Shown: positions 5,832-29,002 of the stretch, piece by piece
Position numbering within the stretch: the first letter of the stretch is position 1
Layout of the letters: the number at the start of each line of letters is the position of its first letter
Source: Desulfobulbus propionicus DSM 2032
Lineage (GTDB): Bacteria; Desulfobacterota; Desulfobulbia; Desulfobulbales; Desulfobulbaceae
Assembly: GCF_000186885.1 (NCBI RefSeq)
Contig: NC_014972.1
Location: forward strand, 2,790,001 to 2,822,000
Reading direction: 5' to 3'
DNA: 32,000 bases
Position numbers and translations under genes: made by a program
Notes under the pieces: model-generated
Told to the model about the DNA's origin: nothing
Databases searched by the model: none
Seen by the model: only the letters and a program-made list of their open reading frames with translations

Positions 5832-6806
5832 TTAGACGGCGGCCTTGTGGTATTCTTCTTCCGAAACGCCCAGCCGTTCACAGATGGTCCGCTCGTCGCT
5901 GTTCAGGGCCTTGCTCTCGGCCGGCACCTTCTTGCCGTCCAGACCGGAGGGATCACCGATGACCGGGGCTGCCTTACAGAAGTCGGCGAACCGCTGCAGC
6001 CCGCCTTCCTGCCGGCACTGGGCCTTGTGGTAGTCGACCGTGGCCGGGGTGATCTTGCCCTCGGTCAGCGCTGCATTGATCGCGGTCTCGATCTCGGTTT
6101 CGAGCTGCTCCTGCTTGAGGGCGGTAAGCGATTGCTCGGCATTGGTGGCCCGGGCCAGGGCCGCGTCATAGTCGGAGCGGGGCACAAACTTCTCCAGACT
6201 GGGATTCTCGGCCCGGTTGGTGGCTGTGGCCAGATCGGTTTTGAGAGCCGAGATCTTGGCCAGGGCCTGGTCCTGGGTGGCGTCTTCGGGCAGCGCCAGG
6301 GCTGCCAGCAGTGCTTTGAGCATAGGGGTCTCCTTGGGATCCTGGATCCCGGTGTGATGGTTGAGGGCCTGCAGGTTGAGGTTGGGCCGGTTGGTCAGGG
6401 CCACCGAGGTCAAACCGACGATCAGGCCGTTGTCTTTCTGGTAGAGGATCACGGGGCTCAGGTAGCGGTACTGTTTGCCGCCGACCAGGTCCTTGCCGCT
6501 GGCGTTCCACTCGACCCGGCCCCAAATGACGCCTTCCCGGTTCTGCAACTCCTTGATCCAGCCGGCTGCCGGCGCCGGTTCTCCCAGGGGTGCTTTCAGC
6601 TCGGTGGCATGCTCCAGGTCAATCGGCAGGTCCATGCCTTGGGCAATGAAGGCATCGAGGATCCCTTGGGGGTGGATGTTGTTCCAGGTCCGGCCGTCGC
6701 GTCCCGCAACCCGGCCCGCCGGGATCAATTCCACCCACTCGGGGACCGTGTTGTTTTGGAGCGCGATTTCGGTGCTGTTCAGTGCAATGTGCTGCGTGGT
6801 TGTCAT
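5832..6806 (-). CDS. Mu gpI-like prohead protease/scaffold
   Basis: 324 aa. The segment PEWVELIPAGRVAGRDGRTW...IDLEHATELK...AAGWI...YRYLSPV matches the Mu-like prophage I protein family. A GAGGAAGG ribosome-binding site precedes the ATG. Confidence 0.85.
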   Translation of the reverse strand: MTTTQHIALNSTEIALQNNTVPEWVELIPAGRVAGRDGRTWNNIHPQGILDAFIAQGMDLPIDLEHATELKAPLGEPAPAAGWIKELQNREGVIWGRVEWNASGKDLVGGKQYRYLSPVILYQKDNGLIVGLTSVALTNRPNLNLQALNHHTGIQDPKETPMLKALLAALALPEDATQDQALAKISALKTDLATATNRAENPSLEKFVPRSDYDAALARATNAEQSLTALKQEQLETEIETAINAALTEGKITPATVDYHKAQCRQEGGLQRFADFCKAAPVIGDPSGLDGKKVPAESKALNSDERTICERLGVSEEEYHKAAV

Positions 6807-8501: not shown

Positions 8502-8673
8502 GGTCGTGATACGGTTGTTCCCTGGCCAATCGCTCCAGTTCCCGCCAGTCGGCCGTCATTCGGGTCTCGGAAACCACAACCGGGCCTTCCTGGAAAAGCG
8601 GGCCGGCCAGGTACAGTCCCAAGATGACCGCCAGGAGCAGCAGGCCCGTCTGGATGCAACTCCAGGGGCTCAC
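8488..8673 (-). CDS. Possible small membrane protein (GTG start overlapping the portal stop)
   Basis: The GTG at 8673 overlaps the portal TGA as GTGA. The 61-aa frame VSPWSCIQTGLLLLAVILGLYLAGPLF... has one hydrophobic helix and fills the otherwise empty portal-gpF gap. Confidence 0.3.
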   Translation of the reverse strand: MSPWSCIQTGLLLLAVILGLYLAGPLFQEGPVVVSETRMTADWRELERLAREQPYHDHGQR

Positions 8674-10235
8674 TCGGCCACCTCCAGCCGTCCGGCCAGG
8701 TTGCCGAGCAGATCCAGCCGGGCCATGATCTCGCCGAGCTGTTCGGGTTGGCTGGTTGCCAGGAGATCGATCAGCTGCTCGCGGAACTGCTCCAGGCTCT
8801 CGGCCTGTTCCAGCAGGGACTCGGCCCGGGTGATCAGGTTGGCGGCCGGACCGGCCGACTCGGTCTTGACCCATTGCAGCAGGGTCGACTCCAAAGGGTT
8901 CTTATCCAACTCCCGGCTGTTCTTGGCGGCCTCAACCGGTTCCGGTTGAACGGGTTGTTTATCAGCAGTCTCAACGGCTGCCGGTTGTTCCGCTGGTGGG
9001 GGAGTTCCTAAACAGTCCGCGCCCTCTTCCGGATCCGGCAGCCCCAGCTTGTCGCGGACCACCGATTGCTCGACCTTCAGCCCCAGGGGCACCAGCTTCT
9101 CCAGGGCGGTGACCAGCAGCTGGGTATCCTCCGGCTCCACCGCCTTGATGAGCAGCTCCGGATACTGTTCCTGCGGTCCCCAGTTGAGATCGATGAACGG
9201 CCGGACCAGGTCGCGGTTGATGGTCTCGGAGAGCTGGGTGGCATCATCGTCGCGGATATCTTCCCGCACCTCAGCCTGGGCATCCTCGTTGCCCAGTTTG
9301 CCGGCTGTCCCTTGCGTGGTGGCGGTCTGGCCGAGGATCCCCCGGCTGACCTGGGCATCGAGCCAGTCCGCCAGCTTGTTGAACAGTTCGTGGCCACCGG
9401 TGACCTTGGCGCTCTCGACAAACTCGATCAGCATCGACTCCGGAATCACTGCCGCCGCATCGCTGCCCAGGTTGGCCACCGCAGCTTTCAGGATAGCGAT
9501 GTCTTCCTTGGACGCACCGGGCTGATACTTGCCGACCCGCAGCGGCATGCCGAAGACCTCGGCAAAGGCTAGCCAGTCCTTCACCGTGTAGTTCTTGCAC
9601 ATCCACGCCCAGGCAGCCACGCGGGCGATCCCGCCGCGAATGGGGATGCCGGTCTTCAAATGCGGCAAGTGGCAGATGAACTTGAACGGGGCCAGATCGA
9701 TACCTTCCGCCACATTCTGCTCATCAAGCAGTCTGAGGCGCCTTCGGGAAGCCCGATCAAAGGTGAAAAAGCGGGGATCGCGCCACTCATACCCCACCGG
9801 CCGCCATCTGGCGCCACGCGACCAGAGGATCTCGCACACCGAGAACCCCTTGCCGATGGCATCGAGCAGGTCCTTGAGCAAGCCACGGAAACCGGCCTGT
9901 TTCACAAGTGCCCGCACCTCGTCGGCCAACTGCACATCCTGGGGTTCATCACTGGCTGCTTCCACCGTGATCGGCAAGGAGGCCACGGCCAACTTGCGTT
10001 TGGAAATCTCGCAGCGGTAGTGCAGATCCCGCTCCTCCATCTCCTCGGCAAGCGTCAGGTACTCGCTGATCTCGCCTTCGGCGGCCCGTTGCAATAGCCC
10101 AGCCAACCGGTACGGGGTCAGGCCCGAGGCCACGGTCACGTCCCAGACGCTGCGGATCCCGGCCAGGCTGGGTGCGGCCAGTTCCTGGGTCAGGGTTCGG
10201 GTTGTGACCGGTCGGTTAAGATAGTCGTAGATCAC
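8670..10235 (-). CDS. Portal protein, Mu gpH/gp29 (DUF935) family
   Basis: 521 aa, directly downstream of the large terminase. The N-terminal region LTPYRLAGLLQRAAEGEISEYLTLAEEMEERDLHY and overall length fit DUF935 portals. Confidence 0.85.
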   Translation of the reverse strand: MIYDYLNRPVTTRTLTQELAAPSLAGIRSVWDVTVASGLTPYRLAGLLQRAAEGEISEYLTLAEEMEERDLHYRCEISKRKLAVASLPITVEAASDEPQDVQLADEVRALVKQAGFRGLLKDLLDAIGKGFSVCEILWSRGARWRPVGYEWRDPRFFTFDRASRRRLRLLDEQNVAEGIDLAPFKFICHLPHLKTGIPIRGGIARVAAWAWMCKNYTVKDWLAFAEVFGMPLRVGKYQPGASKEDIAILKAAVANLGSDAAAVIPESMLIEFVESAKVTGGHELFNKLADWLDAQVSRGILGQTATTQGTAGKLGNEDAQAEVREDIRDDDATQLSETINRDLVRPFIDLNWGPQEQYPELLIKAVEPEDTQLLVTALEKLVPLGLKVEQSVVRDKLGLPDPEEGADCLGTPPPAEQPAAVETADKQPVQPEPVEAAKNSRELDKNPLESTLLQWVKTESAGPAANLITRAESLLEQAESLEQFREQLIDLLATSQPEQLGEIMARLDLLGNLAGRLEVAE

Positions 10236-11758
10236 CAGGTCCCCTCCATGGTGCCGAAGCCCGCAGTTGTCCGGATGTGCCGGTCACCTGGTTCAAAGTC
10301 CCGTTTGCGCACCGGATGGTAAGCGTACTCGGTGATCTCCATCCTGGTGGCCGAGATGGCCAGGGCCAGGGCAATGGCCGCGTCACCATGGCGCTGCCGG
10401 CCGTCAGCGCCCTTGTTCTTGGTGTCCGGCAGCTTGGCCACACCCCGGATCATCTTGATCGCCCGGTAATCGTCGAGATGGTCGGCATCCTTGGCCACTT
10501 CCACGGTGCCGTCCTCGAAGAACGATTTGAACCGGGGCATCTCGTCGCGGTACCAGGCCTCGGACAGCATCACCTGCTCGATCCGGCCAGTTCCGTAGCG
10601 CTGCATGGCCCGCTCGGCCAGATACTGGCCGTTGCCACGGGCATCGAACTTGCCGAAGCTGAACCGGGGCAATCGATCAAGGATGAAGAAAATGATCAGC
10701 TCCTGTTCCTTGAACGGCACATTGGACAGCTCCACCACAAAGGGCTGGCGATAGGTCAGGTTCTCCTGCTCGGCCAAGGGGGAGAGCACGGTCAGGTCAC
10801 CCAGGCGGGCAAAGTCTTCGCCGGCGTAGTGCCGCCGCTTCGGATCCAGCTTGGCGAGCAGCGGCGCCAGCTGCTCCTCGCACCACTCCAAGGCCTCGGC
10901 CTCGCGGAGAGGATCGGGCTGCAGGGCGAACTCGTTGGTGCAGGCCCAACGCAGGATCGGGATATCGTCGCGCATGCAGCGTTCGATGATCACCCGGGGC
11001 AGGAAGGCACCGGATCCCTGGCTAGGGATGCAGAACAGTTCCTCGTCGGCGCCGCTGCCGTATTGAGCAATCAGTTTCTCTCTCCACTGGTCCTCGGCCT
11101 CCTGCGACCATGGCTTGCCCAGGCGCAGGCAGATGCGCTCATACAGGCCTTCCGCCAGGGCATCGTCGATGGTGACCCGGTGTAGGCTGTACGGCTTCTT
11201 GCCGGCCCGGACCTCGTTGATCACCTCATTGAATGGATTGGTGTCGCCATCATGGGTGGAGATGATCACCACCCGCCCGCCCCACATCAACAGGGCCATG
11301 GCTGCCTTGATCAGCTCGCTCAGGTTGTCGTGAAAGGCGGCTTCGTCGATGACTACCTTGCCCTGCTTGCCGCGCAGGTTGGACGGCCTGCTCGACAGGG
11401 CCACGATCTTGTGACCCGAGGCGCAACGGATCCTGAAAGCGAGGATGTCTTTGTCTTCGTCCGCCAAGACGAACTCCTCCACCGCTGAGGCCGCCTTGTT
11501 GAAATGCCCCAGCCAGTCGCCGCAGTCCTCGATGAACTCCTGGGCCATGTCCTTGTTGTAGCCGATGTACCACACGTCCATGCCGCTCCGGCTGGCTGCC
11601 AGCAAGGCATCGTCCGCCGCCTCTGCCCAGGACAGGCCGATACGTCGGGACTTCTCGATGATCTTGACCTCGCCCTGGTCTTCCAGCCACCGTTGCTGAT
11701 ACGGCAGCAGGGCCATGGGCGCGCGGTTGGTTCTATCTTCCTTGGTAAAAGTACTCAT
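10232..11758 (-). CDS. Terminase large subunit (Mu gp28-like)
   Basis: 508 aa. The sequence LLPYQQRWLEDQGEVKIIEKSRRIGLSWAEA...VVIDEAAF...IISTHDG shows ATPase Walker-like motifs and a nuclease C-terminal part. It overlaps both the small subunit and the portal genes. Confidence 0.9.
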   Translation of the reverse strand: MSTFTKEDRTNRAPMALLPYQQRWLEDQGEVKIIEKSRRIGLSWAEAADDALLAASRSGMDVWYIGYNKDMAQEFIEDCGDWLGHFNKAASAVEEFVLADEDKDILAFRIRCASGHKIVALSSRPSNLRGKQGKVVIDEAAFHDNLSELIKAAMALLMWGGRVVIISTHDGDTNPFNEVINEVRAGKKPYSLHRVTIDDALAEGLYERICLRLGKPWSQEAEDQWREKLIAQYGSGADEELFCIPSQGSGAFLPRVIIERCMRDDIPILRWACTNEFALQPDPLREAEALEWCEEQLAPLLAKLDPKRRHYAGEDFARLGDLTVLSPLAEQENLTYRQPFVVELSNVPFKEQELIIFFILDRLPRFSFGKFDARGNGQYLAERAMQRYGTGRIEQVMLSEAWYRDEMPRFKSFFEDGTVEVAKDADHLDDYRAIKMIRGVAKLPDTKNKGADGRQRHGDAAIALALAISATRMEITEYAYHPVRKRDFEPGDRHIRTTAGFGTMEGTW

Positions 11759-13493: not shown

Positions 13494-14039
13494 TTAGGTG
13501 CGACCGAACACGCCGGGAAAGTCCTCGTGCTGGCTCCAGGCCTTGTAATGAAGGTATTGCTCGCCGTTCTGACAGCGAACCAGGAGGCGCGGCGAACGTT
13601 TGCGCAGGCACATCGTGACCGCCTGCAGGGTTTTGGGACCCATGATGCCGTCCACCACCAGGTCCGGGTAGAACCGTTCTCGTGCGTTGAGGGCGTTCAA
13701 GGCCCGCTGGAGGAACTTGGTCCCGTTGCCCGGTCCGCAGTTGACCGAAGCTTCGAACAACTCCTCGGCAACTTCCGGACTGACCACGTCGATGTGGTCA
13801 CAGCTCAGCGGCTGCCAGAACTCGGTGCGGTAGAACTCACGCACCAGATCGGTCAGGCCAGGCGCCAAAGACAAGGCGTGGCCCGCATGCAGGCAAGCGT
13901 CGATAATCGGCCAGCCCTCCCAAAGAGGATGCTTGTTGCGGGCGATGCCCATGTAGGTCTCACCACCCTTGTCCTTGGGGTTGTTGCTGTAGCCGCCCTC
14001 GTGTTGCAGGGTGGCGGCAAATGCGCGAGCAAAGCTCAT
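13494..14039 (-). CDS. Endolysin, glycoside hydrolase family 108 with C-terminal peptidoglycan-binding region
   Basis: 181 aa. The N-terminal FAATLQHEGGYSNNPKDKGGETYMGI is the GH108 signature, and the region around GIMGPKTLQA resembles PG_binding_3. Confidence 0.85.
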   Translation of the reverse strand: MSFARAFAATLQHEGGYSNNPKDKGGETYMGIARNKHPLWEGWPIIDACLHAGHALSLAPGLTDLVREFYRTEFWQPLSCDHIDVVSPEVAEELFEASVNCGPGNGTKFLQRALNALNARERFYPDLVVDGIMGPKTLQAVTMCLRKRSPRLLVRCQNGEQYLHYKAWSQHEDFPGVFGRT

Positions 14040-14376
14040 GGGGCCTCATCTGGCATGGGGTATCTTTCCTTTAAGGAAGAGGCAGGCCGTGTGGCCCGCC
14101 CCTATCCATGGGCAAGGAGAATGCATGGCGTCCAAACCATGTTGACGAGGGAACTATAGAGGAGAGGGCAGACAGCAATAAGTCTGCGCTGGAGCAGTGG
14201 TGAAAGTGCAAAATTTTATGATCACCACCCGGTCCGGGGTGATCCGGTTGGTGAAAGTTGACTAGGAAGATGTGGAAGACAGGAGGGGGGACCGGGGCAT
14301 ACGATTGAGGAAGTGCTGATGCAGCGCTATTCGCTCAATTTCGAGGTTGACTTAAAAACGGAGGGCTCAAGTTGAG

Positions 14377-14398
14377 CAATAGGTAAATTTACCTATTG
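14377..14398. repeat. 22-bp perfect palindrome CAATAGGTAAATTTACCTATTG upstream of the island operon
   Basis: Read directly from the sequence. It lies about 115 bp upstream of the methyltransferase ATG and is preceded by a second small palindrome, CTCAAGTTGAG (14366-14376). Confidence 0.8.
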
Positions 14399-14513
14399 AG
14401 ATTCAACGGTTGTCAACGACACTTTCAAGTGGTAGACAATCTCGACCTCATGCCTTTTTTCATGAAAATCAAGAAAACCGTGGTGCGCAGGACTGTTCGA
14501 GTACAACACAGAG

Positions 14514-16697
14514 ATGAATGGCAATGCATCAACAAGCCAAGAAAATGGAACGGCGATGACTCAAAAGCTGCAAGAAATAATTAAAGACAGTGCATACAAC
14601 CTTAGTCAATTCAAGCCTGAACAGATTTCAGCCTTGGAATCCGCAATAAGCATCAAGGGTTCCGGCACAAAAGCAGCTCCCTATGTAACGTGCCTGATGC
14701 GAGGCAAACCGATCAAGCTCACTCCGGAAGAAACCATTCGGCAACTCTACCTTATGGTACTCCGTGACGATCTGGGATACCCCGTGAGTCGCATGGCCGT
14801 CGAATATGAGGTGACTTTTGGGCGTGAGAAGAAACGTGCCGACATCTGCATCTTTGACAAGGACAAGACCAACACGCCATACATCCTGGTCGAACTAAAA
14901 AAACCGAAACTCAAGGACGGCAAGGAACAGCTCAAGAGCTACTGCAACGCCACCGGTGCACCGATGGGCGTATGGACCAACGGACAGCAGATTTCTTACT
15001 ACCATCGCAGGGACCCAAACTATTTTGAAGACATCCCCGCTATCCCTTCGGCCCATGAAAAACTGTCGGACATCCTCTCCGAGCGCTGGACGATCGATGA
15101 CCTGATTAAACTCGACAAACTGGTCAACGAGAAAAAGTCCCTGAAAGACCTGATCCTCGAAATGGAAGACGAGGTGCTCGCCAACGCGGGCGTGGACGTG
15201 TTCGAGGAGATGTTCAAGCTCATTTTCACCAAACTCTATGATGAGTTGGAAGGCGGGCGCGACAAGAAGCGCCATCTAGTTTTCAAAAACTACGGCGACA
15301 CCGAAACCGAACTCAAGGCCAAGATTCAGGATCTGTTTGACAAGGCTTGCGCCAAATGGGAAGGCGTTTTCCCGGAGAACGTTAAGATAGACCTCACCCC
15401 GAGCCACCTGGCAGTGTGCGTTTCTTCCCTGGAAAAGGTCAAGCTGTTCAATTCCAACCTGGAAGTAGTCGATGAGGCGTTCGAATACCTCATCAACAAG
15501 TCCAGCAAGGGTGAAAAGGGTCAATATTTCACTCCGCGCTATGTCATCGACATGTGTGTGAAGATGCTCAATCCGCAAGCGCATGAAACCCTGATCGATA
15601 CGGCCGCCGGGAGTTGTGGCTTTCCTGTACATGGTATCTTTTATGTCTGGGAACAGATCATGAAAGAAGAAGGGCTCGCAAAGAGTCATCTCTTCACCAC
15701 GGATAAAAAGCCCGCGCGTTGTGAGGACTATGTCCGCGACAAGGTTTTTGCCATCGACTTTGATGAAAAAGCCGTACGTGTTGGCCGGACACTCAATCTG
15801 ATCGCCGGTGACGGCCAGACCAACGTGCTGCACCTCAACACCCTGGACTACGAACGCTGGGACGAAAAAACCAGCGACGAAACCTGGATAGATATTTACG
15901 GCGAAGGCTGGAAGAAACTGCGCAAGCTACGGCTTGATAAAACCAGCAACCGGGATTTCGGTTTTGATGTACTGATGGCCAACCCGCCCTTTGCCGGTGA
16001 TATCAAAGAAACCAGAATCCTGGCCAAGTACGACCTGGCCCGCTCGGTACGCCTCGACAAAATCGGCAAGGTAGACCCAAAGGACAAGAACATCGTCACC
16101 GCGCATGATCGTGCCCCCAGTTTCACCGAAGCCCTGCATGCCAGCCATGAGGTCATTTATCAAATGGCCGATGGTACCTACCGCAAGGTCAAGGTCAAGA
16201 ACCAGAACAAGGTTGGCCGCGATATCTTGTTCATCGAGCGGAATCTCAATTTTCTCAAACCTGGCGGCCGCATGGCGGTGGTACTGCCACAGGGCCGTTT
16301 CAACAACGCCTCGGACAAGGATTTACGGGAATACCTTGCAGCACACTGCCGCATCCTCGCCGTAGTCGGCCTGCACGGTAATGTGTTTAAGCCACACACC
16401 GGCACCAAGACCAGCGTACTTTTCGTGCAAAAATGGAATGACGATTCAAAAGCCGGTCCGCTTTGTCCGAGGGTGGATGACTATCCGATCTTCTTCGCCA
16501 CCATGCGCGAGCCCAGCAAGGATAATTCCGGTGATAAAATCTACCGGCAAGGGCCGGACGGCTCGCCGCTGCTCGACAGCCACGGACACCTCATCGTCAA
16601 GCATGATCTATTTAATCACGATGGCTTGACCGAGGATGGTATCGCCGATGCCTTTATCGAGTTTGCCAAGAAAGAGGGCCTCAGTTTTTTTCTCTAA
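14514..16697 (+). CDS. Fusion of an HsdR-N-terminal-type PD-(D/E)xK domain with a gamma-class N6-adenine DNA methyltransferase (BcgI-A-like / HsdM-like)
   Basis: 727 aa. The N-terminal segment VEYEVTFGREKKRADICIFDKDKTNTPYILVELKKP...GVWTNGQQISYY fits the E...D...ExK nuclease-fold pattern. The methyltransferase motifs are GQYFTPRYV, motif I LIDTAAGSCGF and motif IV NPPF (VLMANPPFAG). An alternative start is the ATG at 14556. Confidence 0.85.
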   Translation: MNGNASTSQENGTAMTQKLQEIIKDSAYNLSQFKPEQISALESAISIKGSGTKAAPYVTCLMRGKPIKLTPEETIRQLYLMVLRDDLGYPVSRMAVEYEVTFGREKKRADICIFDKDKTNTPYILVELKKPKLKDGKEQLKSYCNATGAPMGVWTNGQQISYYHRRDPNYFEDIPAIPSAHEKLSDILSERWTIDDLIKLDKLVNEKKSLKDLILEMEDEVLANAGVDVFEEMFKLIFTKLYDELEGGRDKKRHLVFKNYGDTETELKAKIQDLFDKACAKWEGVFPENVKIDLTPSHLAVCVSSLEKVKLFNSNLEVVDEAFEYLINKSSKGEKGQYFTPRYVIDMCVKMLNPQAHETLIDTAAGSCGFPVHGIFYVWEQIMKEEGLAKSHLFTTDKKPARCEDYVRDKVFAIDFDEKAVRVGRTLNLIAGDGQTNVLHLNTLDYERWDEKTSDETWIDIYGEGWKKLRKLRLDKTSNRDFGFDVLMANPPFAGDIKETRILAKYDLARSVRLDKIGKVDPKDKNIVTAHDRAPSFTEALHASHEVIYQMADGTYRKVKVKNQNKVGRDILFIERNLNFLKPGGRMAVVLPQGRFNNASDKDLREYLAAHCRILAVVGLHGNVFKPHTGTKTSVLFVQKWNDDSKAGPLCPRVDDYPIFFATMREPSKDNSGDKIYRQGPDGSPLLDSHGHLIVKHDLFNHDGLTEDGIADAFIEFAKKEGLSFFL

Positions 16698-16729
16698 GCC
16701 CCTTCGACAAGGCGCAGTATGAGCGCCTG

Positions 16730-18175
16730 TTGGAGGGGCTTGAAGTGAGCGAAATTCAGTTTTCCGAAGCGCTATCCGGAACAAAAACGTCACGCATCGA
16801 CCCTGAGTATTTCAATAGAGCAGCCACCAAAACCCTGAAAATGATAAAGGGGACATTGCGGCTAGGGGATCTTGTTCAAGATGGTTATCGGGTCGTCTAT
16901 GAAACCACAGAGGCCATCGATCGGGAAGAAGGGGAACGCCTAGGCCTGCCCTATTTTCTGCAAAGCGCTGACATATCGACACCTTTCATCAATGCCAAGT
17001 CTATGGTTTGTGTAGCCCTTTCGGATTGGGAACGCTACCCAAAGGGGCGCATTATTCCCGGGGAGCTGCTTATCGAAGTCAAAGGCAAGGCAGAGAAGAT
17101 CGCTTTGGTTCCCGATGATTTTCCCAAAAATACGCTTGTGACAGGGACCTGTTTCAAGCTTACAACCAAGCAACGCGTCGATCAGTATTTCTTAGCAAGT
17201 TATCTTACTTGCCGTTACGGCCAAGCCCTTAAAGATCGGCTAAAAAGCAACTTGCTTGTAAGCTATATCGCAAAAGATGATCTTTACCGACTTCCCATCC
17301 CAGACCTCTCCCCTGAGATTAAGCTCAAGATTAAGTTTTGTTTTGACCGGTGCTTCGAGGCGCATGAAGAAGCTCAATCTTTAATGGACGAGGCCGAAAC
17401 CACGCTCCTTCGCGCACTCGGCTTAGAAAATTGGCAAGCTCCAGAATCTTTGAGCTATGTCCGCAACAGCCGCGATGCATTTGCTGCCGGGCGACTGGAT
17501 GCAGAGCATTTTCAAGAGAAGTATTATGCGGCAAAAACAGCCTTGATTAAAGCAGGCGCCAAGTGTTTTATCCCTTTCCCTGAACTGTTGGAGTCTTTGA
17601 CAAACGGGCATACCCCTCTACGTCACGATTTGAGCAAGGGTGAAGTTCCGTTCCTATGTGCAGAACACGTTAACGATTTCAATATCAAATTTGACAGTGA
17701 GAAACGTATCCTTCTTGAGCACCATGGAAAAGAACTAGCACGCACAGCCGTTCACGATGGTGATGTATTGCTCACTATCAAAGGAAGAATTGGAAATGCG
17801 GCTATCGCAGAAAACGTACCGGGAGCAGTCAACATCAATCAAGACGTTGCCCTACTTCGCCTCAATGAAACATTGCCTATTTGGTATATTGTTGCCTACT
17901 TGAATTGCCGTTTTGGAAAATTACAATCTGAAAAAATGGCAACAGGAGCCATTAATCCCTTCCTTGGTCTTTTTAGTGTCCGTCGGTTTGAAGTCCCTGA
18001 ATTTGAATATGAGACTATGCAAGAGATTGCCGACAGTACCCAATCGCTCGTTAAGTCGTCCCGCTCTGCTTGGCAAAAGGCATCTCAGTTTCTCGACACG
18101 GCTAAGCGTGCTATTGAAATTGCCATCGAAGAAAACGAAACAGCCGCGATGGCATATCTGGAGGGGGCTGTATGA
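16730..18175 (+). CDS. hsdS: Restriction-modification specificity subunit (HsdS-like, two target-recognition domains)
   Basis: 481 aa. The conserved spacer motif occurs twice, as SRIDPEYF near the N-terminus and GRLDAEHF mid-protein, each followed by a variable TRD. It has a TTG start, and the frame is open from 16616, so the exact start is uncertain. Confidence 0.8.
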   Translation: MEGLEVSEIQFSEALSGTKTSRIDPEYFNRAATKTLKMIKGTLRLGDLVQDGYRVVYETTEAIDREEGERLGLPYFLQSADISTPFINAKSMVCVALSDWERYPKGRIIPGELLIEVKGKAEKIALVPDDFPKNTLVTGTCFKLTTKQRVDQYFLASYLTCRYGQALKDRLKSNLLVSYIAKDDLYRLPIPDLSPEIKLKIKFCFDRCFEAHEEAQSLMDEAETTLLRALGLENWQAPESLSYVRNSRDAFAAGRLDAEHFQEKYYAAKTALIKAGAKCFIPFPELLESLTNGHTPLRHDLSKGEVPFLCAEHVNDFNIKFDSEKRILLEHHGKELARTAVHDGDVLLTIKGRIGNAAIAENVPGAVNINQDVALLRLNETLPIWYIVAYLNCRFGKLQSEKMATGAINPFLGLFSVRRFEVPEFEYETMQEIADSTQSLVKSSRSAWQKASQFLDTAKRAIEIAIEENETAAMAYLEGAV

Positions 18176-18747
18176 GCGGAGACTACTATAAAGAGTGGCG
18201 TGCAAAGGCCGAGGTTGATTATTTCCCGCAATTGGTAGTTTTATGGCTTTCAACCAATTCGTGGTACCGATCTCACTACTCCGAAATCACAACCAAGCGC
18301 GACCGTGACTTTCTCAACAAGCTTCGAGACGATCACAGCACCAGGAACAAGCTTTTTACGAGGTTTGATAGGCTGCTCGGGTCTGCTGGCACCAAAGATC
18401 ATGCCGAACTGATCAGTGTCATCGAAGCGCTCTCATTCGCTTTAAATAGCGCTTTGCTCCTTTGGGAAGAGAATAAGGGCGACAGCGTAATCACCTTCGA
18501 AAACTGCCTGCTAGCGCTGAATCCCAAAATGTACGGCAGTCTCGTTGTCAAGAAGCGAGCGCCAGGTATCCGCATCAGCGACACACTCAAGCTTACCGAT
18601 GACAAATCTTCTCTTTTTAATGGGCTGCTTGAGATAATTTACCAGATCCGCTGCCACCTGGTTCATGGCCAACTGGAACCAAATAACGAGAACCATGAAG
18701 TGGTGAAGCATTGTTATCGTTTGCTGCATCTACTGATGCAGATTTAA
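18172..18747 (+). CDS. Hypothetical 191-aa protein with a C-terminal Rx4H motif (possible HEPN-type RNase)
   Basis: Its ATG overlaps the hsdS TGA as ATGA. The protein is predicted helical. The motif YQIRCHLVHG places R160 and H165 in Rx4H spacing near the C-terminus, followed by Gly as in many HEPN families. Confidence 0.4.
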   Translation: MSGDYYKEWRAKAEVDYFPQLVVLWLSTNSWYRSHYSEITTKRDRDFLNKLRDDHSTRNKLFTRFDRLLGSAGTKDHAELISVIEALSFALNSALLLWEENKGDSVITFENCLLALNPKMYGSLVVKKRAPGIRISDTLKLTDDKSSLFNGLLEIIYQIRCHLVHGQLEPNNENHEVVKHCYRLLHLLMQI

Positions 18748-18807
18748 AACGGAAAAGATTCTGACTGCATTTCTCCACCCCCAAATCCTTCTATCAACGA
18801 GCAAGAA

Positions 18808-19710
18808 ATGGAAATAACCGTTCAGGCTTTTGAACTGAAAACAGGAAAAGGAATTTCTCTCCAGCATTTTGGTGACCACCTCAAAACTCTGTCGGTGTCG
18901 TCTGTGAAGAACAGGTACATCTATGTTGATCGGACAGATGGATGGTGGCACGGTTTGCTGTTGACGGCTCGAAATATAAAAGCCTTTGCACGGATGGAAC
19001 GACAGGGGGGACGGGTTATTTTAAGCCCGGAATCTATTAAAAATGGGGAACTTGCACATTTTAATTTTTTCTTAGTGCACGAAAAGTTTGGGAGAGGATT
19101 ATATCAGTATTATCACGGATCATCCTCTGTCCATGGATTTGCACAAGTATTGAAGCAACATTATAATGGATTTAAAAAGCAGTGTATCGAGAGAGATTGC
19201 CTTGCTGAAAATATTTTGGCAGATTCACCGCCGAAGAAAATAACTAAACGTTATGCCGGTTATCTGGTTTACCAGCTTGTTTTACGCAGAAAATCGTTCG
19301 AAGCTCTCATGAAAGAGCTTAGAGGAGTAAGAAAAGTCTCACTTCAGTTTGTTGAATATGAACCTCATCAGAGATTGTTTAGATCGCTTGCAGGCAAAGC
19401 GAAGGCAGTGCAACACAACCTTACATTTGGCAATAAATATGACGGATCCATCAGAGATGATCTAGTAGAGTTGGCAAACACCGATATTTTGAAGACATTG
19501 AGCGGAGTAGGTATTGACGATAACGATGTCGAACGGCGTTTTCGTTTACTGAATGAGCCTGAATCGCTTGGCAATTTCGATTTTAACGATATTGTCCTTT
19601 CAACTGAGTTCGACTCGGAAGATGTTCATTCGAGTCTTGAGCGAGCGCCTGTCCTCTCAAAAATGAAAACGATAGCCGAATCTGACAATTGGTTGATGGG
19701 TAAAATATAA
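18808..19710 (+). CDS. Hypothetical 300-aa soluble protein, no family recognised
   Basis: Clean ORF with an ATG start in a low-GC context. It has no TM segments and no catalytic motif that I can name. Confidence 0.6.
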   Translation: MEITVQAFELKTGKGISLQHFGDHLKTLSVSSVKNRYIYVDRTDGWWHGLLLTARNIKAFARMERQGGRVILSPESIKNGELAHFNFFLVHEKFGRGLYQYYHGSSSVHGFAQVLKQHYNGFKKQCIERDCLAENILADSPPKKITKRYAGYLVYQLVLRRKSFEALMKELRGVRKVSLQFVEYEPHQRLFRSLAGKAKAVQHNLTFGNKYDGSIRDDLVELANTDILKTLSGVGIDDNDVERRFRLLNEPESLGNFDFNDIVLSTEFDSEDVHSSLERAPVLSKMKTIAESDNWLMGKI

Positions 19711-19711
19711 A

Positions 19712-20236
19712 ATGGTCACTTTTATTCCATACATAGCGACTATTTTTGTATCCATTTGTTGTTGGTTTGCCCTGTTCAATTTACCTGATACGAATCGATT
19801 TTCTTGCCTCTACGATACAAAACTTCAGCTTGTTTTCTTTACTGCATTTCTCACTGTTGGCAGTTTTCTTCTGGCAATGAAGGCTTTTATCCTGATTCGG
19901 ATCCGGGATGATATTTATCGCCACGAAAAGTATAAAGAACGATATCTACTACAGTATGATAATCAGTATAAGGGAGATTATTATAAAGGGTTACTCGATC
20001 TGGGCAATTTGCTTGTTGTCAGTGTTGCCGGAGCCTTCTTTACGTCAATCGCTCAAATAACTATCGGATTCAGCAAAATATACCCTATAAAATGCATTGC
20101 TCCGTCACTTGTTGGCGGGATGCTCGTCCTCGTGTTGTTTGACTGGCTTTTTGTTTATCTCAATTTACGAGACTGGTTCGAATTTATCGAATCCGACATA
20201 GAGAAAGAATTGAAGGAAAAGAAAGAAACTCTTTGA
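19712..20236 (+). CDS. Hypothetical 174-aa integral membrane protein (four predicted TM helices)
   Basis: It starts 1 nt after the upstream stop. Hydrophobic helices lie at about aa 3-23, 38-62, 96-119 and 128-152. A Tyr/Lys-rich central loop (IYRHEKYKERYLLQYDNQYKGDYYKG) and a charged C-terminal helix complete the protein. Confidence 0.6.
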   Translation: MVTFIPYIATIFVSICCWFALFNLPDTNRFSCLYDTKLQLVFFTAFLTVGSFLLAMKAFILIRIRDDIYRHEKYKERYLLQYDNQYKGDYYKGLLDLGNLLVVSVAGAFFTSIAQITIGFSKIYPIKCIAPSLVGGMLVLVLFDWLFVYLNLRDWFEFIESDIEKELKEKKETL

Positions 20237-20354
20237 GGAATGTTCATTACGCAGAGCCGTAGTTCAATTTCACACCTCACCTAAAACATTAACAATTGTG
20301 CGCTCAAACTCTGCTCCACTGATTCAGAGCGCCAATACCTTCAGCCTTGATTCC

Positions 20355-23413: not shown

Positions 23414-24145
23414 TCACCCCTGCAAGCCGCACTTGCAGGCAATGGCGGCCAGTTCGGCGTCCACCTCGCCGGTCCGGCGCAAGCTGGTGGCGGCATGGGC
23501 TAGGTTGATGGTGTCGCGGCGGACGATCCGCAGATCGCCGCCGGCGGCCCGGTGCATGATCTCGGCCGCCGGGGTGCTCAGCTGCAGTCCGGTGCACTGG
23601 CTGACATACATGACCACATCCGAAGGGCTCACCGGCTCGAACTCCATGGCCCGATAGGTGCGCGACCAGACTCTCCGGTTTTGTTTCATCAGGTGCGGCA
23701 ACTCCTCTTCACCGATCAGGACCACGATGCCGCCGGTGATCTTGACCAGGTCGCGGATGATCTCGAGAAACTTCTGGCCGAACCGCTCGATTTCGTCGAT
23801 GAATACCGGTTGGTTGTTCGTGGTCATGGCCTCGATGATGGCATCGAAGCACCGGCCCCTGCGGCTGGGGATCTGGCGGATACCGAACTCCCGGCAGAGC
23901 TTCTGCAAAAAATCCAGCTCCGACCAGATCGACACCGTCTCGATATAGACACAGCCGTTTCGGGCCGCCCAGGTCTGGACAGTGCGGGTCTTACCCCGTC
24001 CGGCCCGGCCCCAGATGCAGCCCAACCGCTCGTCGCCTTCGCCTGCCCCGCCCTTGCCGATCATCAACCCCTGCATCAGGGTGTCGAACGATCGCACGTT
24101 TTTGGTCTGGACAAAAACCGGTTTGAATTTTACTGTTTCAGCCAT
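23414..24145 (-). CDS. MuB-like AAA+ ATPase (transposition target-DNA activator)
   Basis: 243 aa with Walker A GRAGRGKT and Walker B VFIDEIE. It lies directly downstream of the transposase, as in Mu. Confidence 0.8.
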   Translation of the reverse strand: MAETVKFKPVFVQTKNVRSFDTLMQGLMIGKGGAGEGDERLGCIWGRAGRGKTRTVQTWAARNGCVYIETVSIWSELDFLQKLCREFGIRQIPSRRGRCFDAIIEAMTTNNQPVFIDEIERFGQKFLEIIRDLVKITGGIVVLIGEEELPHLMKQNRRVWSRTYRAMEFEPVSPSDVVMYVSQCTGLQLSTPAAEIMHRAAGGDLRIVRRDTINLAHAATSLRRTGEVDAELAAIACKCGLQG

Positions 24146-24183: not shown

Positions 24184-24212
24184 AGGCCGGTGTTCCCGCA
24201 CCGGCCTTTTTT
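24184..24212 (+). terminator. Hairpin AGGCCGGTG-TTCCCG-CACCGGCCT followed by TTTTTT (terminator-like only in the plus-strand sense), between the A-like and B-like genes
   Basis: Perfect 9-bp stem read from the sequence. The T-run overlaps the complement of the transposase TAA stop codon. Confidence 0.4.
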
Positions 24213-26379
24213 ATTGTCCGCTGACCGCCTTGCGCCACATCAGGCCGTATTTGATTCGGCACGACTCCCAGTATTCCGGAAAATTGCGGTAGGGGTCGGT
24301 CTTCTCGAAGAAGGTCATGAAGTCGTTCCACTCTTGGGTGAGTTCCATGCCCTGGGCGCTCATTTCGATCAATCGTTCGTAGCGATCTGAATCGTTCAAC
24401 CGCATCAGCTCCTCTTCCAGGGCTTTGGCGACCGCCTCCTGTTGCAACCGTGTGGCCTCTTCCACTTCCCGGCGAAGTTTCTCGGCATCCAGGCTGATCA
24501 TTTTGCAGTTGGACGTGTCGATGGTCTGGATTTCACCGTTCAGCACCCCGATCTCGGCCATCTGCCGGCGGTGCTCGGGCAGGATCTCGTCCTTGAGCAG
24601 AGACCGGGCCGAGGCCGAGGCCTGTTTTTCCTGGTTCTTCTTCAGGGCGATGTGCTGGCGCAGTTTTTCCTTATCTCCCTCGTTACCCAGCTGGGCTGCC
24701 GCCGGGTGCACCTTCTCCACCGGGGTGGCCTCGCAGATCAGTTCGCCCTGTTGATCGAGCACCCAGATCGAGCTGGTATCCTGGAGGTCATAGCGGATGG
24801 ACACTTTATGCCGGCGGCCATAGAGGGCTGGGTGGTAGTAGTTCTGGCCCCGGAAGGTGATACCGTTGCGGTGGATGGTCTTGATTTCCAGGCTCATCAT
24901 CAGCCAGATCAGCTCGGTCTTATCGACACCCGGCCCCTTGCCCTCGACAAAGACCTCCATCGGGTTCCTGCCGTTCAGGTGGCCCCGTTGGGGCCGCTTG
25001 GCGTACTCATCGAACCAGAAGGCGATCAGGGTGTGGGCCTCTTCCAGGCTAAGGCAGCGGCTGCCAAACTGCTGCTCGTGGATTGTGCGGTGCAGTTTCT
25101 CCCCTCGCAGCATCCGGGGCGGCTTATGCTCGATGCTGGTCCCGGTATAGCCGGGGACCAGTCGTTCCAGTTCGGCAAAGGAGCCGAAGAACCGTTCGAC
25201 CGTCTTCGATTGGCCGTGATAGGGCCAGGCATAGATGGTCTGGCAGCCCATGCGTTCATAGAGGCCGGCATATCCTGCCTCGTCGAAGTTCTGGGAGCCC
25301 TTGAAAAACCTGGCCTTGAAGGCTCGGCCGTTGTCCAGGTAAACCACCCGGGGATACTTGCCCAGCCGCAGGACCGCTCGGCGCAGCGCACTGGAAATGG
25401 CGGCCGTGTTCTCGGTCGGCATGATCTCCCAGCCAAGCGGCATGTTGGAGGCCATATCGTAGAACAGGATGAGGGTCATGTGGTTCTGCGGTTTGCCGGT
25501 CCAGGGGTTGATGATCTCGAAGTTGAGGTTGTGGCCGTCGGCCACGATCACATCCCCCACGTTCAACAAATTCATGTCGCGCTCGATGTACATCGCGCAC
25601 TGGTCGTTCCAGGCCTTGGCGCCCTCGCGGGAGAATACCCACAGATGGTGGTTGCGTTCCTTCCAGTGATGGAGCCATCTCCGATAGGTGGCCTCGCTGT
25701 GGGTGTTGTCGATGCCCTGCTGTTCCATAACCGCCTTGGCCACGCGGTAGGCCTCCGAGATCCTCGGCCGGTTGGGCCGGAGCACGCAGCGGAGGAAGAT
25801 CTCGGTCTGCTGTTCCGTCAATCCACACTTGCCTCGTAGATGGGCGCCACGCTTATCGGCCAGGAAGAAGCAGTCATTGCCATGTTTGCGCACCTTGACT
25901 GACCAACTCTCGATGGTCTTCCAGCTTACCGGTCCAAGTTGTTCGTAGAGGTGCGGCCAGGTCAGGCCGGAGTTGTATGCCTGCTCGAATTTCACCCGCG
26001 CTTGGGTTTTGTCGCCCCAGTCAGCGGTGGCCAGTGCCCGATTGTACAAGGCGAGCAAGGCAGCCTTGTGCTGCATTTTCTCCTCCATGCGTTTGGTCAT
26101 CGGAGGTGGAGCAGTCTGTGCGCAGGGTGTGGAGATGGTTGCAGGAAAAAGGGAAACCGGGCTGCTTGGTGCCGAAGGTTGCAGGTTGCCGACACTTTGT
26201 CGCAAGGCAATGGCTGTTTGCACTGCCTTGGGGAGCCGATCGAGAAGATAGCGTTTCTCTTTGCCGCCTCGAACATCGGTCTCTTGATAGGGCCATTGTT
26301 CCTTATTGGCCCTTCGTTGAGCCGATGTCCGGTGGATGCCAAGCGCCTCGGCAATCTCGTTGATTGTTACCTGTTCCAT
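24211..26379 (-). CDS. MuA-like DDE transposase
   Basis: It has an N-terminal HTH (MEQVTINEIAEALGIHRTSAQRR). The rve-type core carries VIVADGHNLNF, VVYLDNGRAF and GQSKTVERFF, which supply the D, D and E residues. The long C-terminal domain resembles Mu transposase. I prefer the ATG at 26379 (AGGGA ribosome-binding site); the ORF track extends to 26436. Confidence 0.9.
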   Translation of the reverse strand: MEQVTINEIAEALGIHRTSAQRRANKEQWPYQETDVRGGKEKRYLLDRLPKAVQTAIALRQSVGNLQPSAPSSPVSLFPATISTPCAQTAPPPMTKRMEEKMQHKAALLALYNRALATADWGDKTQARVKFEQAYNSGLTWPHLYEQLGPVSWKTIESWSVKVRKHGNDCFFLADKRGAHLRGKCGLTEQQTEIFLRCVLRPNRPRISEAYRVAKAVMEQQGIDNTHSEATYRRWLHHWKERNHHLWVFSREGAKAWNDQCAMYIERDMNLLNVGDVIVADGHNLNFEIINPWTGKPQNHMTLILFYDMASNMPLGWEIMPTENTAAISSALRRAVLRLGKYPRVVYLDNGRAFKARFFKGSQNFDEAGYAGLYERMGCQTIYAWPYHGQSKTVERFFGSFAELERLVPGYTGTSIEHKPPRMLRGEKLHRTIHEQQFGSRCLSLEEAHTLIAFWFDEYAKRPQRGHLNGRNPMEVFVEGKGPGVDKTELIWLMMSLEIKTIHRNGITFRGQNYYHPALYGRRHKVSIRYDLQDTSSIWVLDQQGELICEATPVEKVHPAAAQLGNEGDKEKLRQHIALKKNQEKQASASARSLLKDEILPEHRRQMAEIGVLNGEIQTIDTSNCKMISLDAEKLRREVEEATRLQQEAVAKALEEELMRLNDSDRYERLIEMSAQGMELTQEWNDFMTFFEKTDPYRNFPEYWESCRIKYGLMWRKAVSGQ

Positions 26380-26469
26380 CGTTGTCCCTTGCTTGCAAAA
26401 ATCCATCTTCGTGCTACTTTGATCATCGAAAAACAACGAATTATCAATATTTCGCGAAAGGATGGAAAC

Positions 26470-26949
26470 ATGGAAAAAGAGATCATGACGTCAATCATCA
26501 CTGCTGGCGCTGCTCTCTCCGGCGTCGCGGTGTCGCAACTCGGCGGCATCGTCCGGTCACTATTCGATAAAAACAACGAACGAACCGTACTGCTGCGGTC
26601 AAAGCTCGAAGAGCTGGCGGACAACTTGCACAGGACAACGGAGTAGTTCGATTGGTTGGCGAAGACTGTTTCTGAGAAGGGTGCTCGCCCAGTAACATCA
26701 AGTGGAGGTCCCATCTCTGTTGCCACGTCATCCGAGGCCCGCCGCGTTTATGTGCTTTCATTGCTGTACTTTCCATCAATGAGGGAAGAGGCGAGAACAC
26801 TGCTCAACTCTTCCTACGAGTTTTATCTGCTTATGCAGAGCCTTGATAACTTCGACCCGCAAAAGCTAACCGAGATCACCTCGAATTACCGGGCCGCGAA
26901 AAAAGCTTTGGACGACCTCACATCCCTTGAGGCCGAGAAAATCACCTGA
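26470..26949 (+). pseudogene. Plus-strand ORF split by a single in-frame TAG (58 codons, TAG, 100 codons): nonsense-disrupted moron or readthrough gene
   Basis: The ATG at 26470 has an AAGGA upstream. The TAG at 26644-26646 is in the same frame as the following ORF, which is annotated from the TTG at 26656 and ends at 26949. The N-terminal part has a Gly/Ala-rich hydrophobic helix. Confidence 0.4.
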
Positions 26950-26975
26950 CATCATTCGGCGCCTGGTTGTATGCA

Positions 26976-27188
26976 TCATGCCGCCTTCTCCATGCTCTTT
27001 GGAAGGTCGAGATAGTGTTCCGGGCAGCCCTGATCTTTCAGATATTGGAGAACCTTCCGAAGATTCTTCTTGCCGTCGATGGTCAGTGAAACCGGGGTAT
27101 GGTTGCGATAACCGAGGGCACGTCTGGCCGATTCGACAGTCATTTGGTGGCGAAGCATCCATATCCGTATCTCGGTCGAGTTCCTCAT
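26976..27188 (-). CDS. Ner/Nlp-like small HTH DNA-binding protein
   Basis: 70 aa from the ATG at 27188, which overlaps the upstream TGA as ATGA. The sequence EIRIWMLRHQMTVESARRALGYRNHTPVSLTIDGKKNLRKVLQYL resembles the Ner-type HTH layout. Confidence 0.5.
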   Translation of the reverse strand: MRNSTEIRIWMLRHQMTVESARRALGYRNHTPVSLTIDGKKNLRKVLQYLKDQGCPEHYLDLPKSMEKAA

Positions 27189-27661
27189 CCCAGCTCCTCT
27201 TCGATCTTCTTCATCTTCTTCCGCAGTGCCTTGGTCTTTTGGTACACCCTGGCCCACTCGAGCAGTTTCACATCCTCGCCTTCGATGACCATTCCACCAA
27301 GAGTGGCGACCATCACCGCCATCGGTTGCACCGTGCCCAGGGCTGCACATAAGAGTGATAGTGCCTTGATACCTGGCACCCGGCTGTCGTCTTCCACGTT
27401 CAGCCATTTCTCAAACAGGTCCTTGCTCACGCCAGCCTTGCCATTGATGGGCACATTATGTCGGCGGGCCAACTCGTTCATCCGGTCCAACACCTGATCC
27501 CGCGACTGGCCGGAGGCCTTCACCGCCTGGTTCAAGGCCTCCTTCACATCGCGGACAACCGTGTGCAGTCCGGAATTGCTGAAGATTGTCAGTTGGGTAG
27601 GTGGCAAAGTTCGTGCTCCTGTCCGCCGATGTGGCACTGCGTGTCCTATTTTTGATGACAC
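27185..27661 (-). CDS. First early-operon protein, function unknown (possible regulator)
   Basis: The ORF track starts it at the GTG at 27661. The TTG at 27607, preceded by AGGAG at 8 nt, is a better start. The gene is translationally coupled to the Ner-like gene. Confidence 0.5.
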   Translation of the reverse strand: MSSKIGHAVPHRRTGARTLPPTQLTIFSNSGLHTVVRDVKEALNQAVKASGQSRDQVLDRMNELARRHNVPINGKAGVSKDLFEKWLNVEDDSRVPGIKALSLLCAALGTVQPMAVMVATLGGMVIEGEDVKLLEWARVYQKTKALRKKMKKIEEELG

Positions 27662-27740
27662 GCGGACGTTGTAAAAACATCCGGCCTCTGATACTGTCCA
27701 TTTATGGAACTTTCGTTTCCTTATCGGTCGTGATAGTCGC

Positions 27741-27773
27741 CCATTTTTGGCAAATTGTCAATGCCAAAAATGG
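27741..27773. promoter_or_regulatory. Perfect 12-bp inverted repeat CCATTTTTGGCA-N9-TGCCAAAAATGG in the divergent repressor/early control region
   Basis: Read directly from the sequence. It lies between the early-operon start and the repressor start. Confidence 0.6.
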
Positions 27774-27774
27774 C

Positions 27775-27905
27775 GCACAGCTTTATTTTGGGCTGATACG
27801 CGGGTTTGCTTCACAAAAAATACGATAAATCAGCGTTATAAAGGGAGCGGTGCGTACAGAAAAAACGCACAGCTTTCTGCACAGCTTTCCAAAATTAAGC
27901 TGTGC
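27775..27905. promoter_or_regulatory. Operator-like repeats: GCACAGCTTT three times direct (27775, 27867, 27879) plus an inverted AAGCTGTGC (27897-27905)
   Basis: Read directly from the sequence. The last direct copy and the inverted copy form a 9-bp dyad with a 9-nt spacer, about 30 bp upstream of the repressor ATG. Confidence 0.6.
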
Positions 27906-27934
27906 ACCGGAATTGATCATTCAAAGGTGGGCGA

Positions 27935-28681
27935 ATGAGTCTTGGAAACAGAATTAAATCCGTCAGAGGAACCCTTTCCCAAAAAGAGTTTAGCGATGTG
28001 TGCAAGGTTGGGATTTCTACGCTTAGGCGTTATGAGTCAGGAGTAAACCCTCCTGACTCCGATTTTTTATGCGCTATCGTTGATAATTATAATATCAACC
28101 CTATGTGGCTGTTGAGTGGTGAGGGGCCGATGTACCGAGAAAGAAACACGGATCCGCACGGTGCCAGTACTAATTCAACCAGCGCAAAGATACCGCAACG
28201 GCCTGTTTATATGGACGATAGCGGCCAAGTAGTCATCCCCCAATGGCAGAATCCCGATCCAGAGATGTTCGATTACATCCCTATGGCGGAAACGCAACTT
28301 TCCGCAGGGGGAGGAGCCTTTGTTATCTCGGAAGAGATCGAAGGATATTATGCATTTAGAAAAAGCTGGCTGAGCAGAGTCGCATCCAGCACCAAGAACT
28401 TGGTACTCATGCGGGTTCTCGGAGACTCGATGTCGCCAACCATTCAGGAAGACGACACAGTGATGATCGATATCGGGAAAAGATCGATAAAGGAGGGAAT
28501 GATCTACGCCATCCGCTTTGATTCCACAGTCATGATTAAGCGGTTGGCCTTTCGCCCTGGCGGGCGCATCATGATAATCTCAGACAATCGGCACGAATAC
28601 GAGCCTTACGAAGCCGACATGAGGGAACTGCACATCATCGGCCAGATCATTTTTTTCTGCCGAACCTTCGCCACCGAATAG
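27935..28681 (+). CDS. Prophage repressor: XRE-type HTH plus S24 (LexA/CI-like) autopeptidase domain
   Basis: 248 aa. The N-terminal HTH is LSQKEFSDVCKVGISTLRRYESG. The C-terminal domain has GDSMSPT (catalytic Ser) and MIKRL (Lys). The gene is divergent from the early operon. Confidence 0.85.
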   Translation: MSLGNRIKSVRGTLSQKEFSDVCKVGISTLRRYESGVNPPDSDFLCAIVDNYNINPMWLLSGEGPMYRERNTDPHGASTNSTSAKIPQRPVYMDDSGQVVIPQWQNPDPEMFDYIPMAETQLSAGGGAFVISEEIEGYYAFRKSWLSRVASSTKNLVLMRVLGDSMSPTIQEDDTVMIDIGKRSIKEGMIYAIRFDSTVMIKRLAFRPGGRIMIISDNRHEYEPYEADMRELHIIGQIIFFCRTFATE

Positions 28682-28954
28682 AGGTAGTTTCAGCCAGCAT
28701 TAACTTTCTCGCTCTTGATGCAAAATCCTGCCAATTTCACCCCAAAACCGAAAAGTTTCTTGTTTTAGAAATTTGTCCGCAAAATTTTTTCCAGACGTCC
28801 ACAAATGCCCATAGCGTTTGGAAAAAGTGCCATAAAAGTATCACCATTCCACGCTATTCAAAGTTTCTGGGTTTATGTGCCCCCCTATACCCCTATATGC
28901 AGAATCTCGCGCGAGTTTACAATATACGGGACAGGAGCGGGATAAATTGTCCTA

Positions 28955-28994: not shown

Positions 28995-29002
28995 GATATT
29001 AC

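Follow-up and report, generated by a model that had tools for sequence, protein, structure and literature searches.

A conserved Rx4H protein, a candidate HEPN ribonuclease, as the optional third gene of an HsdR-less restriction-modification cassette in a Mu-like prophage of Desulfobulbus propionicus

In the guard model drawn from PrrC and EcoprrI, a latent ribonuclease (RNase) is silenced by a restriction-modification (R-M) complex and serves the cell as a second line of defence. The same source describes HEPN genes, ApeA/BMEI1217 among them, that lie within R-M operons (PMC3710099). Here we analyse a stretch of 32,000 nucleotides from Desulfobulbus propionicus DSM 2032 (the window; contig NC_014972.1, positions 2,790,001 to 2,822,000 of the forward strand), in which the gene of a 191-residue protein, hereafter X, follows those of a nuclease-methyltransferase protein (M) and of a specificity subunit (S). 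The features at issue, in coordinates of the window, are as follows.

18172 to 18747, + strand: X, the 191-residue HEPN-like protein (open reading frame (ORF) call; Despr_2452, WP_015725117, UniProt A0A7U3YNF7)
18172 to 18175, + strand: ATGA start/stop overlap of S and X (X ATG at 18172-18174, S TGA at 18173-18175)
18160 to 18164, + strand: GGAGG, Shine-Dalgarno-like, inside the S gene and 7 nucleotides 5′ of the X start, read from the sequence
18649 to 18666, + strand: R160-C-H-L-V-H165 (Rx4H) and then G166, the putative catalytic motif, at the end of the predicted helix 145-164
14514 to 16697, + strand: M, the 727-residue nuclease-methyltransferase protein (Pfam HSDR_N_2, 3.8e-30, and N6_Mtase, 3.7e-26; PADLOC MTase_I, 1141 bits)
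16730 to 18175, + strand: S, the specificity subunit of 481 residues (PADLOC Specificity_I, 1e-31; related to NCBIfam MAD5, below its cutoff)

A preliminary description of this DNA had reported the 191-residue ORF, the overlap of its start with the upstream stop codon as ATGA, and R160-x4-H165 followed by Gly; coordinates and translation confirm each of them. The MSGD N-terminus of X is unchanged among its close homologues, and the start codon is therefore taken to be correct. In our best reading, for which we judge the chances about even, X is a HEPN RNase and the optional third gene of an HsdR-less cassette, where it would form a PrrC-like latent second line controlled by M and S. The structure of the gene, the invariance of its motif, the predicted order of its helices and its conserved synteny are the observations that carry this reading.

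PrrC (EcoprrI, Type Ic, Escherichia coli) resembles X in being a HEPN-motif protein encoded directly after hsdM-hsdS. However, PrrC and RloC possess an N-terminal ABC/Rad50-like ATPase, whereas the 191-residue X has no ATPase domain by Pfam, NCBIfam and PADLOC; and EcoprrI includes HsdR, whereas the X cassette lacks it and has a nuclease-like domain in M. No sequence similarity of X to PrrC was detected. With neither an ATPase fusion nor a complete hsdM-hsdS-hsdR locus, X was rejected as a member of the PrrC/RloC group. ApeA (PF18739) and X have in common an R-x4-H-G motif of HEPN type and the link to R-M operons, but the beta-rich N-terminal domain of ApeA, about 300 residues long, is missing from X. 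The X protein gave no match to PF18739 at E<=1 and none to ApeA in PADLOC, and neither X nor any of the 56 family members scanned reaches the PF18739 gathering threshold of 24.4 bits (best 14.3). ApeA itself is reportedly a single-gene defence (Gao et al. 2020).

The Rx4H motif alone is weak evidence, as it occurs in 40% of composition-preserving shuffles of the X protein, and Rx4-6H in 79%; it is the conservation of the motif that exceeds chance. In an alignment of 56 diverse X homologues (23-48% identical to the query, column identity averaging 22%), invariance is limited to five columns, namely M1, Y17, Y157, R160 and H165, while G166 is kept in 55 members and E154 in 54. The preliminary description had named the conservation of R160 and H165 among homologues as a check, and both residues are present in 56 of 56. 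Position 161 is Cys in 38, Asn in 15 and Ser in two of the 56 members, so that about one third have N, S or H in place of C161, and the consensus of the motif region is [LI]E[IV][IL]YQ[IV]R[CN]xL[FV]HG. Members with Asn at this position read RNxxxHG, as in canonical HEPN families, and because of these variants the earlier worry over a Cys following the Arg is removed. The family thus conforms to the Rx4-6H pattern of the HEPN superfamily, in which a polar residue usually follows the Arg. A second conserved block lies toward the N-terminus (D16-Y17, F21, W25, N29, W31, D44-R45 and K52). A word-indexed search returned 169 close relatives of X, all of them, among the matches listed, at least 67% identical and none with a Pfam domain, and a full profile search over 1.84 billion representatives extended the family to 326 clusters at 50% identity (E<=0.001).

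The AlphaFold model of X built on the diverse alignment has a predicted local distance difference test score (pLDDT) of 95.1 and a predicted template modelling score (pTM) of 0.89, and a shallow alignment gave a pLDDT of 71. Its helices span residues 6-13, 17-35, 44-53, 60-70, 75-94, 145-164 and 172-189, of which 17-35, 75-94, 145-164 and 172-189 are long, and a beta-rich insert at about 96-142 separates the second from the third long helix. This insert is at odds with the earlier expectation that the rest of the protein is all-helical. R160 is located near the end of the third long helix, and H165 just past it, in the loop leading to the fourth. Inserts between helices 2 and 3 are common in HEPN domains (PMC3710099), and the helix order, the place of the motif and the insert of the modelled X fit the HEPN description given there, in a comparison that covers only the order of secondary-structure elements.

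The upstream gene had been described as hsdS, implying a classical Type I locus, which is not borne out: M and S are present and HsdR is absent. The window holds no HsdR-like ORF, the sole other ORF of more than 700 residues being the Mu-type transposase, and no conserved HsdR was found in related X loci, so the cassette lacks the classical Type I set of HsdM, HsdS and an HsdR helicase-nuclease. The HSDR_N_2 domain of M, at N-terminal residues 71-178, has the PD-(D/E)xK nuclease-like fold of HsdR N-termini, with E97, D110 and E127-x-K129, and the N6-adenine methyltransferase domain carries NPPF at 490-493. Among 61 distinct M orthologues, E97, D110 and E127-x-K129 are each conserved in about 98%, P491-P492-F493 are invariant and N490 is kept in 93%. 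Judged by sequence, the cassette has the Type IIB-like composition of a PD-(D/E)xK domain and a gamma-class N6-adenine methyltransferase in one subunit with a separate S, and M/S probably restricts unmodified DNA through the PD-(D/E)xK domain in a Type IIB-like manner. The closest solved sequence relative of M is the Type IIB enzyme RM.BsaXI (5e-18), ahead of EcoKI M, its best stretch covering only residues 566-642 of M, within the methyltransferase domain. The chassis thus resembles the Type IIB enzymes BsaXI and BcgI in its separate S and methyltransferase proteins and in the lack of HsdR, whereas the REBASE-derived models of PADLOC call M a Type I methyltransferase. Type IIB enzymes are not known to have a third, HEPN-like subunit. 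M is 56-77% identical across Desulfobulbus, Streptococcus, Moraxella, Sphingobacteriales, Sericytochromatia and Poribacteria, which for an R-M enzyme is either unusually strong conservation or recent horizontal spread.

Two other systems were considered and rejected. M is homologous to MAD2 (2.7e-93) and S to MAD5 (1.7e-28) of the methylation-associated defence system (MADS), but M scores 313 bits against an equivalog cutoff of 720 and S 99.7 against 400; with scores below the cutoffs, the other mad models unmatched in the island that holds the cassette, and X matching no MADS model, the cassette is not assigned to MADS. X itself weakly matches DzbB of the Dazbog system (PADLOC PDLC03836; E 0.0039, profile positions 243-309 of 341), and such weak matches, to the C-terminal part of DzbB, recur in 14 of the 56 members (best 1.3e-4). 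On these profile matches the X family may be distantly related to DzbB, and membership in Dazbog was rejected, the matches being weak and partial and DzbA being absent. The literature searched contained nothing on DzbB, its fold, or HEPN in Dazbog.

The association of X with M and S was examined in loci selected through X, comprising three close homologues and 79 genome loci in which ORFs were called and then searched with profiles of X, M and S. A good X was present in 74 loci, 69 of them from the genome scan and spread over many phyla, the taxa including Streptococcus, Moraxella, Mannheimia, Bacteroidota, Vampirovibrio, Poribacteria, Dehalococcoidia, Planctomycetota, candidate phyla radiation (CPR) bacteria and a Methanoperedens archaeon. 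The order M-S-X is found in 48 of the 74 and M-X-S in 17, together 65, with all three genes on one strand throughout. Where S lies upstream, S and X overlap or are separated by no more than 10 nucleotides in 51 of 54 loci, the junction being exactly -4 in 22, and the M-X junctions in the M-X-S order are as tight. Therefore, the functional coupling of X to R-M genes suggested in the preliminary description is strongly supported by this synteny in two gene orders, although the partner proves to be an HsdR-less one. The genes 3′ of the triad are varied (McrBC, Mrr, RhuM, AAA_21 ATPases, resolvases, housekeeping genes and genes on the opposite strand), and the downstream census revealed no conserved fourth gene beside M, S and X. 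A conserved fourth effector, for which McrBC, DUF8426 with Mrr_cat, and RhuM were candidates in the first contexts, was thus rejected, the census neighbours being heterogeneous and often housekeeping genes or on the opposite strand.

Shortened X frames of 56-134 residues were also seen within intact M-S cassettes (L043 10001-10207, L070 5493-5876, L072 3206-3610 and L080 4106-4276), and these are possibly decaying copies. Two further loci, L052 and L074, contain short X fragments at or near contig ends.

Against X as a HEPN RNase controlled by M and S stand the outcome of the homology searches, the rapid evolution of X, its occurrence relative to M and S, and the state of the literature. Scans of the X protein against Pfam, NCBIfam, PADLOC and PHROGs gave nothing above threshold, nor did those of 22 and of 56 homologues and of family consensus sequences. 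HEPN_RiboL-PSP appeared below threshold in two of the 56 members (best P0232, E 0.028, residues 84-192) and HEPN_Apea in one (P0139, E 0.057, 14.3 bits against a cutoff of 24.4, residues 135-196), both matches being confined to the C-terminal half that bears the motif. The best HEPN score family-wide is 14 bits against cutoffs of 24-28, and no significant match of X to a HEPN family model was obtained. Searches of Protein Data Bank (PDB) sequences with the X protein, the family profile and a profile restricted to the C-terminal motif region produced chance matches only, including haemagglutinin HA2 and a look-alike in ribosomal uS4, 'YQARQLITHG'. Foldseek of the X model against PDB and BFVD had no result at E<1, though PDB is rich in HEPN, and no solved HEPN domain thus matched it significantly in structure. 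With the family member that scored best against HEPN_RiboL-PSP as the query, a bridging search retrieved two proteins only, and tblastn of X against phage and plasmid collections had no match. In favour of a HEPN identity, UniProt labels A0A7U3YNF7 an 'Apea-like HEPN domain-containing protein', a label whose basis could not be reproduced.

The absence of a significant profile, PDB-sequence or Foldseek match, the frequency of Rx4H in shuffled sequences and the Joint Genome Institute (JGI) annotation of one homologue as a 'predicted metal-binding protein' would all suit a protein that is not HEPN, but a novel helical fold with another chemistry or a binding role, its Rx4H likeness being coincidental. 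However, no more than five columns are invariant and R160 and H165 are two of them, the motif takes a HEPN-like position relative to the predicted helices, the weak HEPN_Apea and HEPN_RiboL-PSP matches fall on the motif region, and the exchange of C161 for N, S or H in about one third of the members speaks against a metal ligand, so that we hold this alternative to be improbable. That X belongs to the HEPN superfamily we regard, by comparison, as rather probable. Of the earlier HEPN-like claim, then, the invariant R160 and H165 and the canonical Asn of the RNxxxHG members stand in its favour, while a significant profile or fold match and the all-helical structure did not materialize.

The second group of opposing results concerns evolution and occurrence. 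In the same loci where M is 56-77% identical, X is only 26-43% identical and thus evolves much faster, which by itself does not indicate a fixed interface between X and M/S; and the literature provided no experiment on any member of the X family. A sample chosen by M alone comprised 80 metagenome loci, of which the 50 with room downstream were counted: X is present in only 10, and M-S without X in 40 (about 80%). An obligate enzyme subunit was thereby ruled out. M retains intact nuclease and methyltransferase motifs (98-100% conserved) with or without X, which rules out that X makes up for a dead M nuclease. Because 65 of the 74 X loci have M/S but only 10 of the 50 M loci have X, X is an optional accessory specific to the M/S chassis, and the chassis is independent of X. 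The PrrC precedent invoked in the preliminary description therefore holds for the embedding in an R-M operon, but not for HsdR, for an ATPase in X, or for a constant presence of the third gene.

When X is missing, the slot after S is occupied by extra S genes (9 loci), RhuM (2), AbiH, AbiEii, a protein kinase, an HNH protein, unrelated genes or nothing, and the slot of X is thus common to recognised abortive-infection and toxin genes. In addition, a few X homologues lie away from any M/S, which further counts against control by M and S. One Parvibaculaceae genome has at least four without M/S nearby (L045 9881-10582 and 17458-18156; L047 9749-10573; L048 9986-10564), one of which follows a 943-residue ABC/SMC-like ATPase (AAA_23, SMC_N, AAA_21), a pair reminiscent of the ATPase-HEPN fusion of PrrC/RloC divided over two genes. 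Other, more distant solo homologues adjoin an OLD and PLD pair or a deaminase. The promiscuous slot, the 80% of M-selected loci without X and the solo copies beside other defence-type genes (ABC/SMC-like ATPase, OLD with PLD, deaminase) would be expected if X were an autonomous toxin or abortive-infection gene that rides behind S, is co-transcribed with it and senses infection by itself, free of M/S control. Cargo of this kind should, however, be found beside many operons, whereas X accompanies one M/S family in 65 of 74 X-selected loci, stands between M and S in 17 and has junctions that overlap or lie within a few nucleotides; we consider such autonomy unlikely.

Directly after S in the X-less cassettes, nine of 28 third genes match Methylase_S and are extra partial S genes (L109, L112, L113, L120, L126, L127, L140, L150 and L170), and resolvase or recombinase genes lie 3′ of the triad in some X-selected loci; together the two suggest phase-variable specificity shufflons.

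The translational coupling of X to S and the M-X-S order point to a component of a complex, and this could be a subunit or regulator that is no RNase. It might, for example, help the enzyme to assemble or dimerise, or restrain the PD-(D/E)xK domain of M, and DNA phosphate or a nucleotide would be the ligand of its conserved Arg and His. The failure to obtain a HEPN fold match with Foldseek is in line with such a role, and the conserved N-terminal aromatic motif (D16, Y17, F21, W25, N29, W31, D44, R45) could be an interaction surface. Yet most M-selected loci have the same catalytic motifs and no X, so the enzyme does not need it, and a helix ending in an invariant R-x4-H-G, in which Asn follows the Arg in one quarter of the members, bears the catalytic signature of HEPN (PMC3710099). 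We therefore give a non-RNase subunit a poor chance.

Based on these findings, we return to X as an RNase controlled by M and S, and infer its RNase activity, its latency, its binding to M/S and its trigger in the following form. X would be a HEPN-superfamily protein that stands alone and, most likely, an RNase that needs no metal and uses R160 and H165. M brings the PD-(D/E)xK nuclease-like domain and the N6-adenine methyltransferase, S gives sequence specificity, and the M/S complex would methylate the host DNA. Translation of X would be coupled to that of S by the ATGA overlap and would also use a ribosome-binding site of its own, and X would be kept inactive by the M/S complex or act downstream of it. 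If M/S were inhibited, overwhelmed or lost, X could cleave cellular or phage RNA. This would amount to abortive infection or, equivalently, to post-segregational killing, by which the cassette would be stabilised. Carried as a moron of a Mu-like prophage, the cassette would protect the lysogen from other phages. Since X lacks the ATPase regulator of PrrC, its mechanism of control must differ from that of PrrC. A bolder version, to which we assign a low probability, makes M-S-X a two-layer immune system complete in itself, in which M/S is the sensor of X and not a mere silencer, so that an unmethylated target or the binding of a phage anti-restriction protein would release X, a minimal HEPN RNase, or switch it on allosterically. 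If that version were true, self/non-self recognition of DNA would be wired to the destruction of RNA in three genes, without the ATPase of PrrC.

HEPN genes in R-M operons are already well catalogued (PMC3710099). Our literature search found no paper on the M-S-X triad, and the supplement of the HEPN survey does not contain the X gene. What appears to be undescribed in the searched literature is, first, a widespread X family without a model in current libraries, second, the strict linkage of this family, in either of two gene orders, to a cassette that lacks HsdR and has a nuclease-bearing methyltransferase, and third, the family's optional and slot-sharing nature. Many bacterial phyla and at least one archaeon have members of the family, and the one described here is aboard a transposable prophage. 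Should X be an RNase under M/S control, it would be a second case, and a much simpler one, of a suicide nuclease guarded by an R-M system, the principle known from PrrC. Because the family is missing from Pfam, NCBIfam and PADLOC, defence finders call these loci incomplete Type I systems; a model of X, together with recognition of the nuclease domain in M, would re-annotate them. The small cassette also suits direct tests of how an R-M complex restrains and releases a toxin.

The window is largely a Mu-like transposable prophage, and the cassette belongs to a low-GC island placed between the early region and the lysis and late genes. A GemA-like gene is also among the genes flanking the island. 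The remaining features are as follows.

14100 to 20300, + strand: low-GC cargo island, GC 0.39-0.53 against about 0.61 around it, on the strand opposite to the prophage genes
24211 to 26436, - strand: Mu-type transposase
23414 to 24145, - strand: MuB-like gene
13494 to 14039, - strand: endolysin
10232 to 11758, - strand: terminase
8670 to 10235, - strand: portal
5832 to 6806, - strand: protease
4467 to 5360, - strand: major head
18808 to 19710, + strand: 300-residue protein of the island, its only match being phrog_2802 (function unknown), 5e-17
19712 to 20236, + strand: 174-residue hydrophobic protein, probably membrane, abutting the 300-residue gene

Since the island sits inside the prophage, on the opposite strand and with low GC, it is regarded as a prophage moron. 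The genes of the 300- and 174-residue proteins are absent beside X in the other loci of the downstream census, and are doubtful as members of the system because they are not conserved with X elsewhere; they could be a separate two-gene module of defence or exclusion. A second stretch of lower GC (0.47-0.53) lies at about 26000-29000 of the window, near the transposase end of the prophage.

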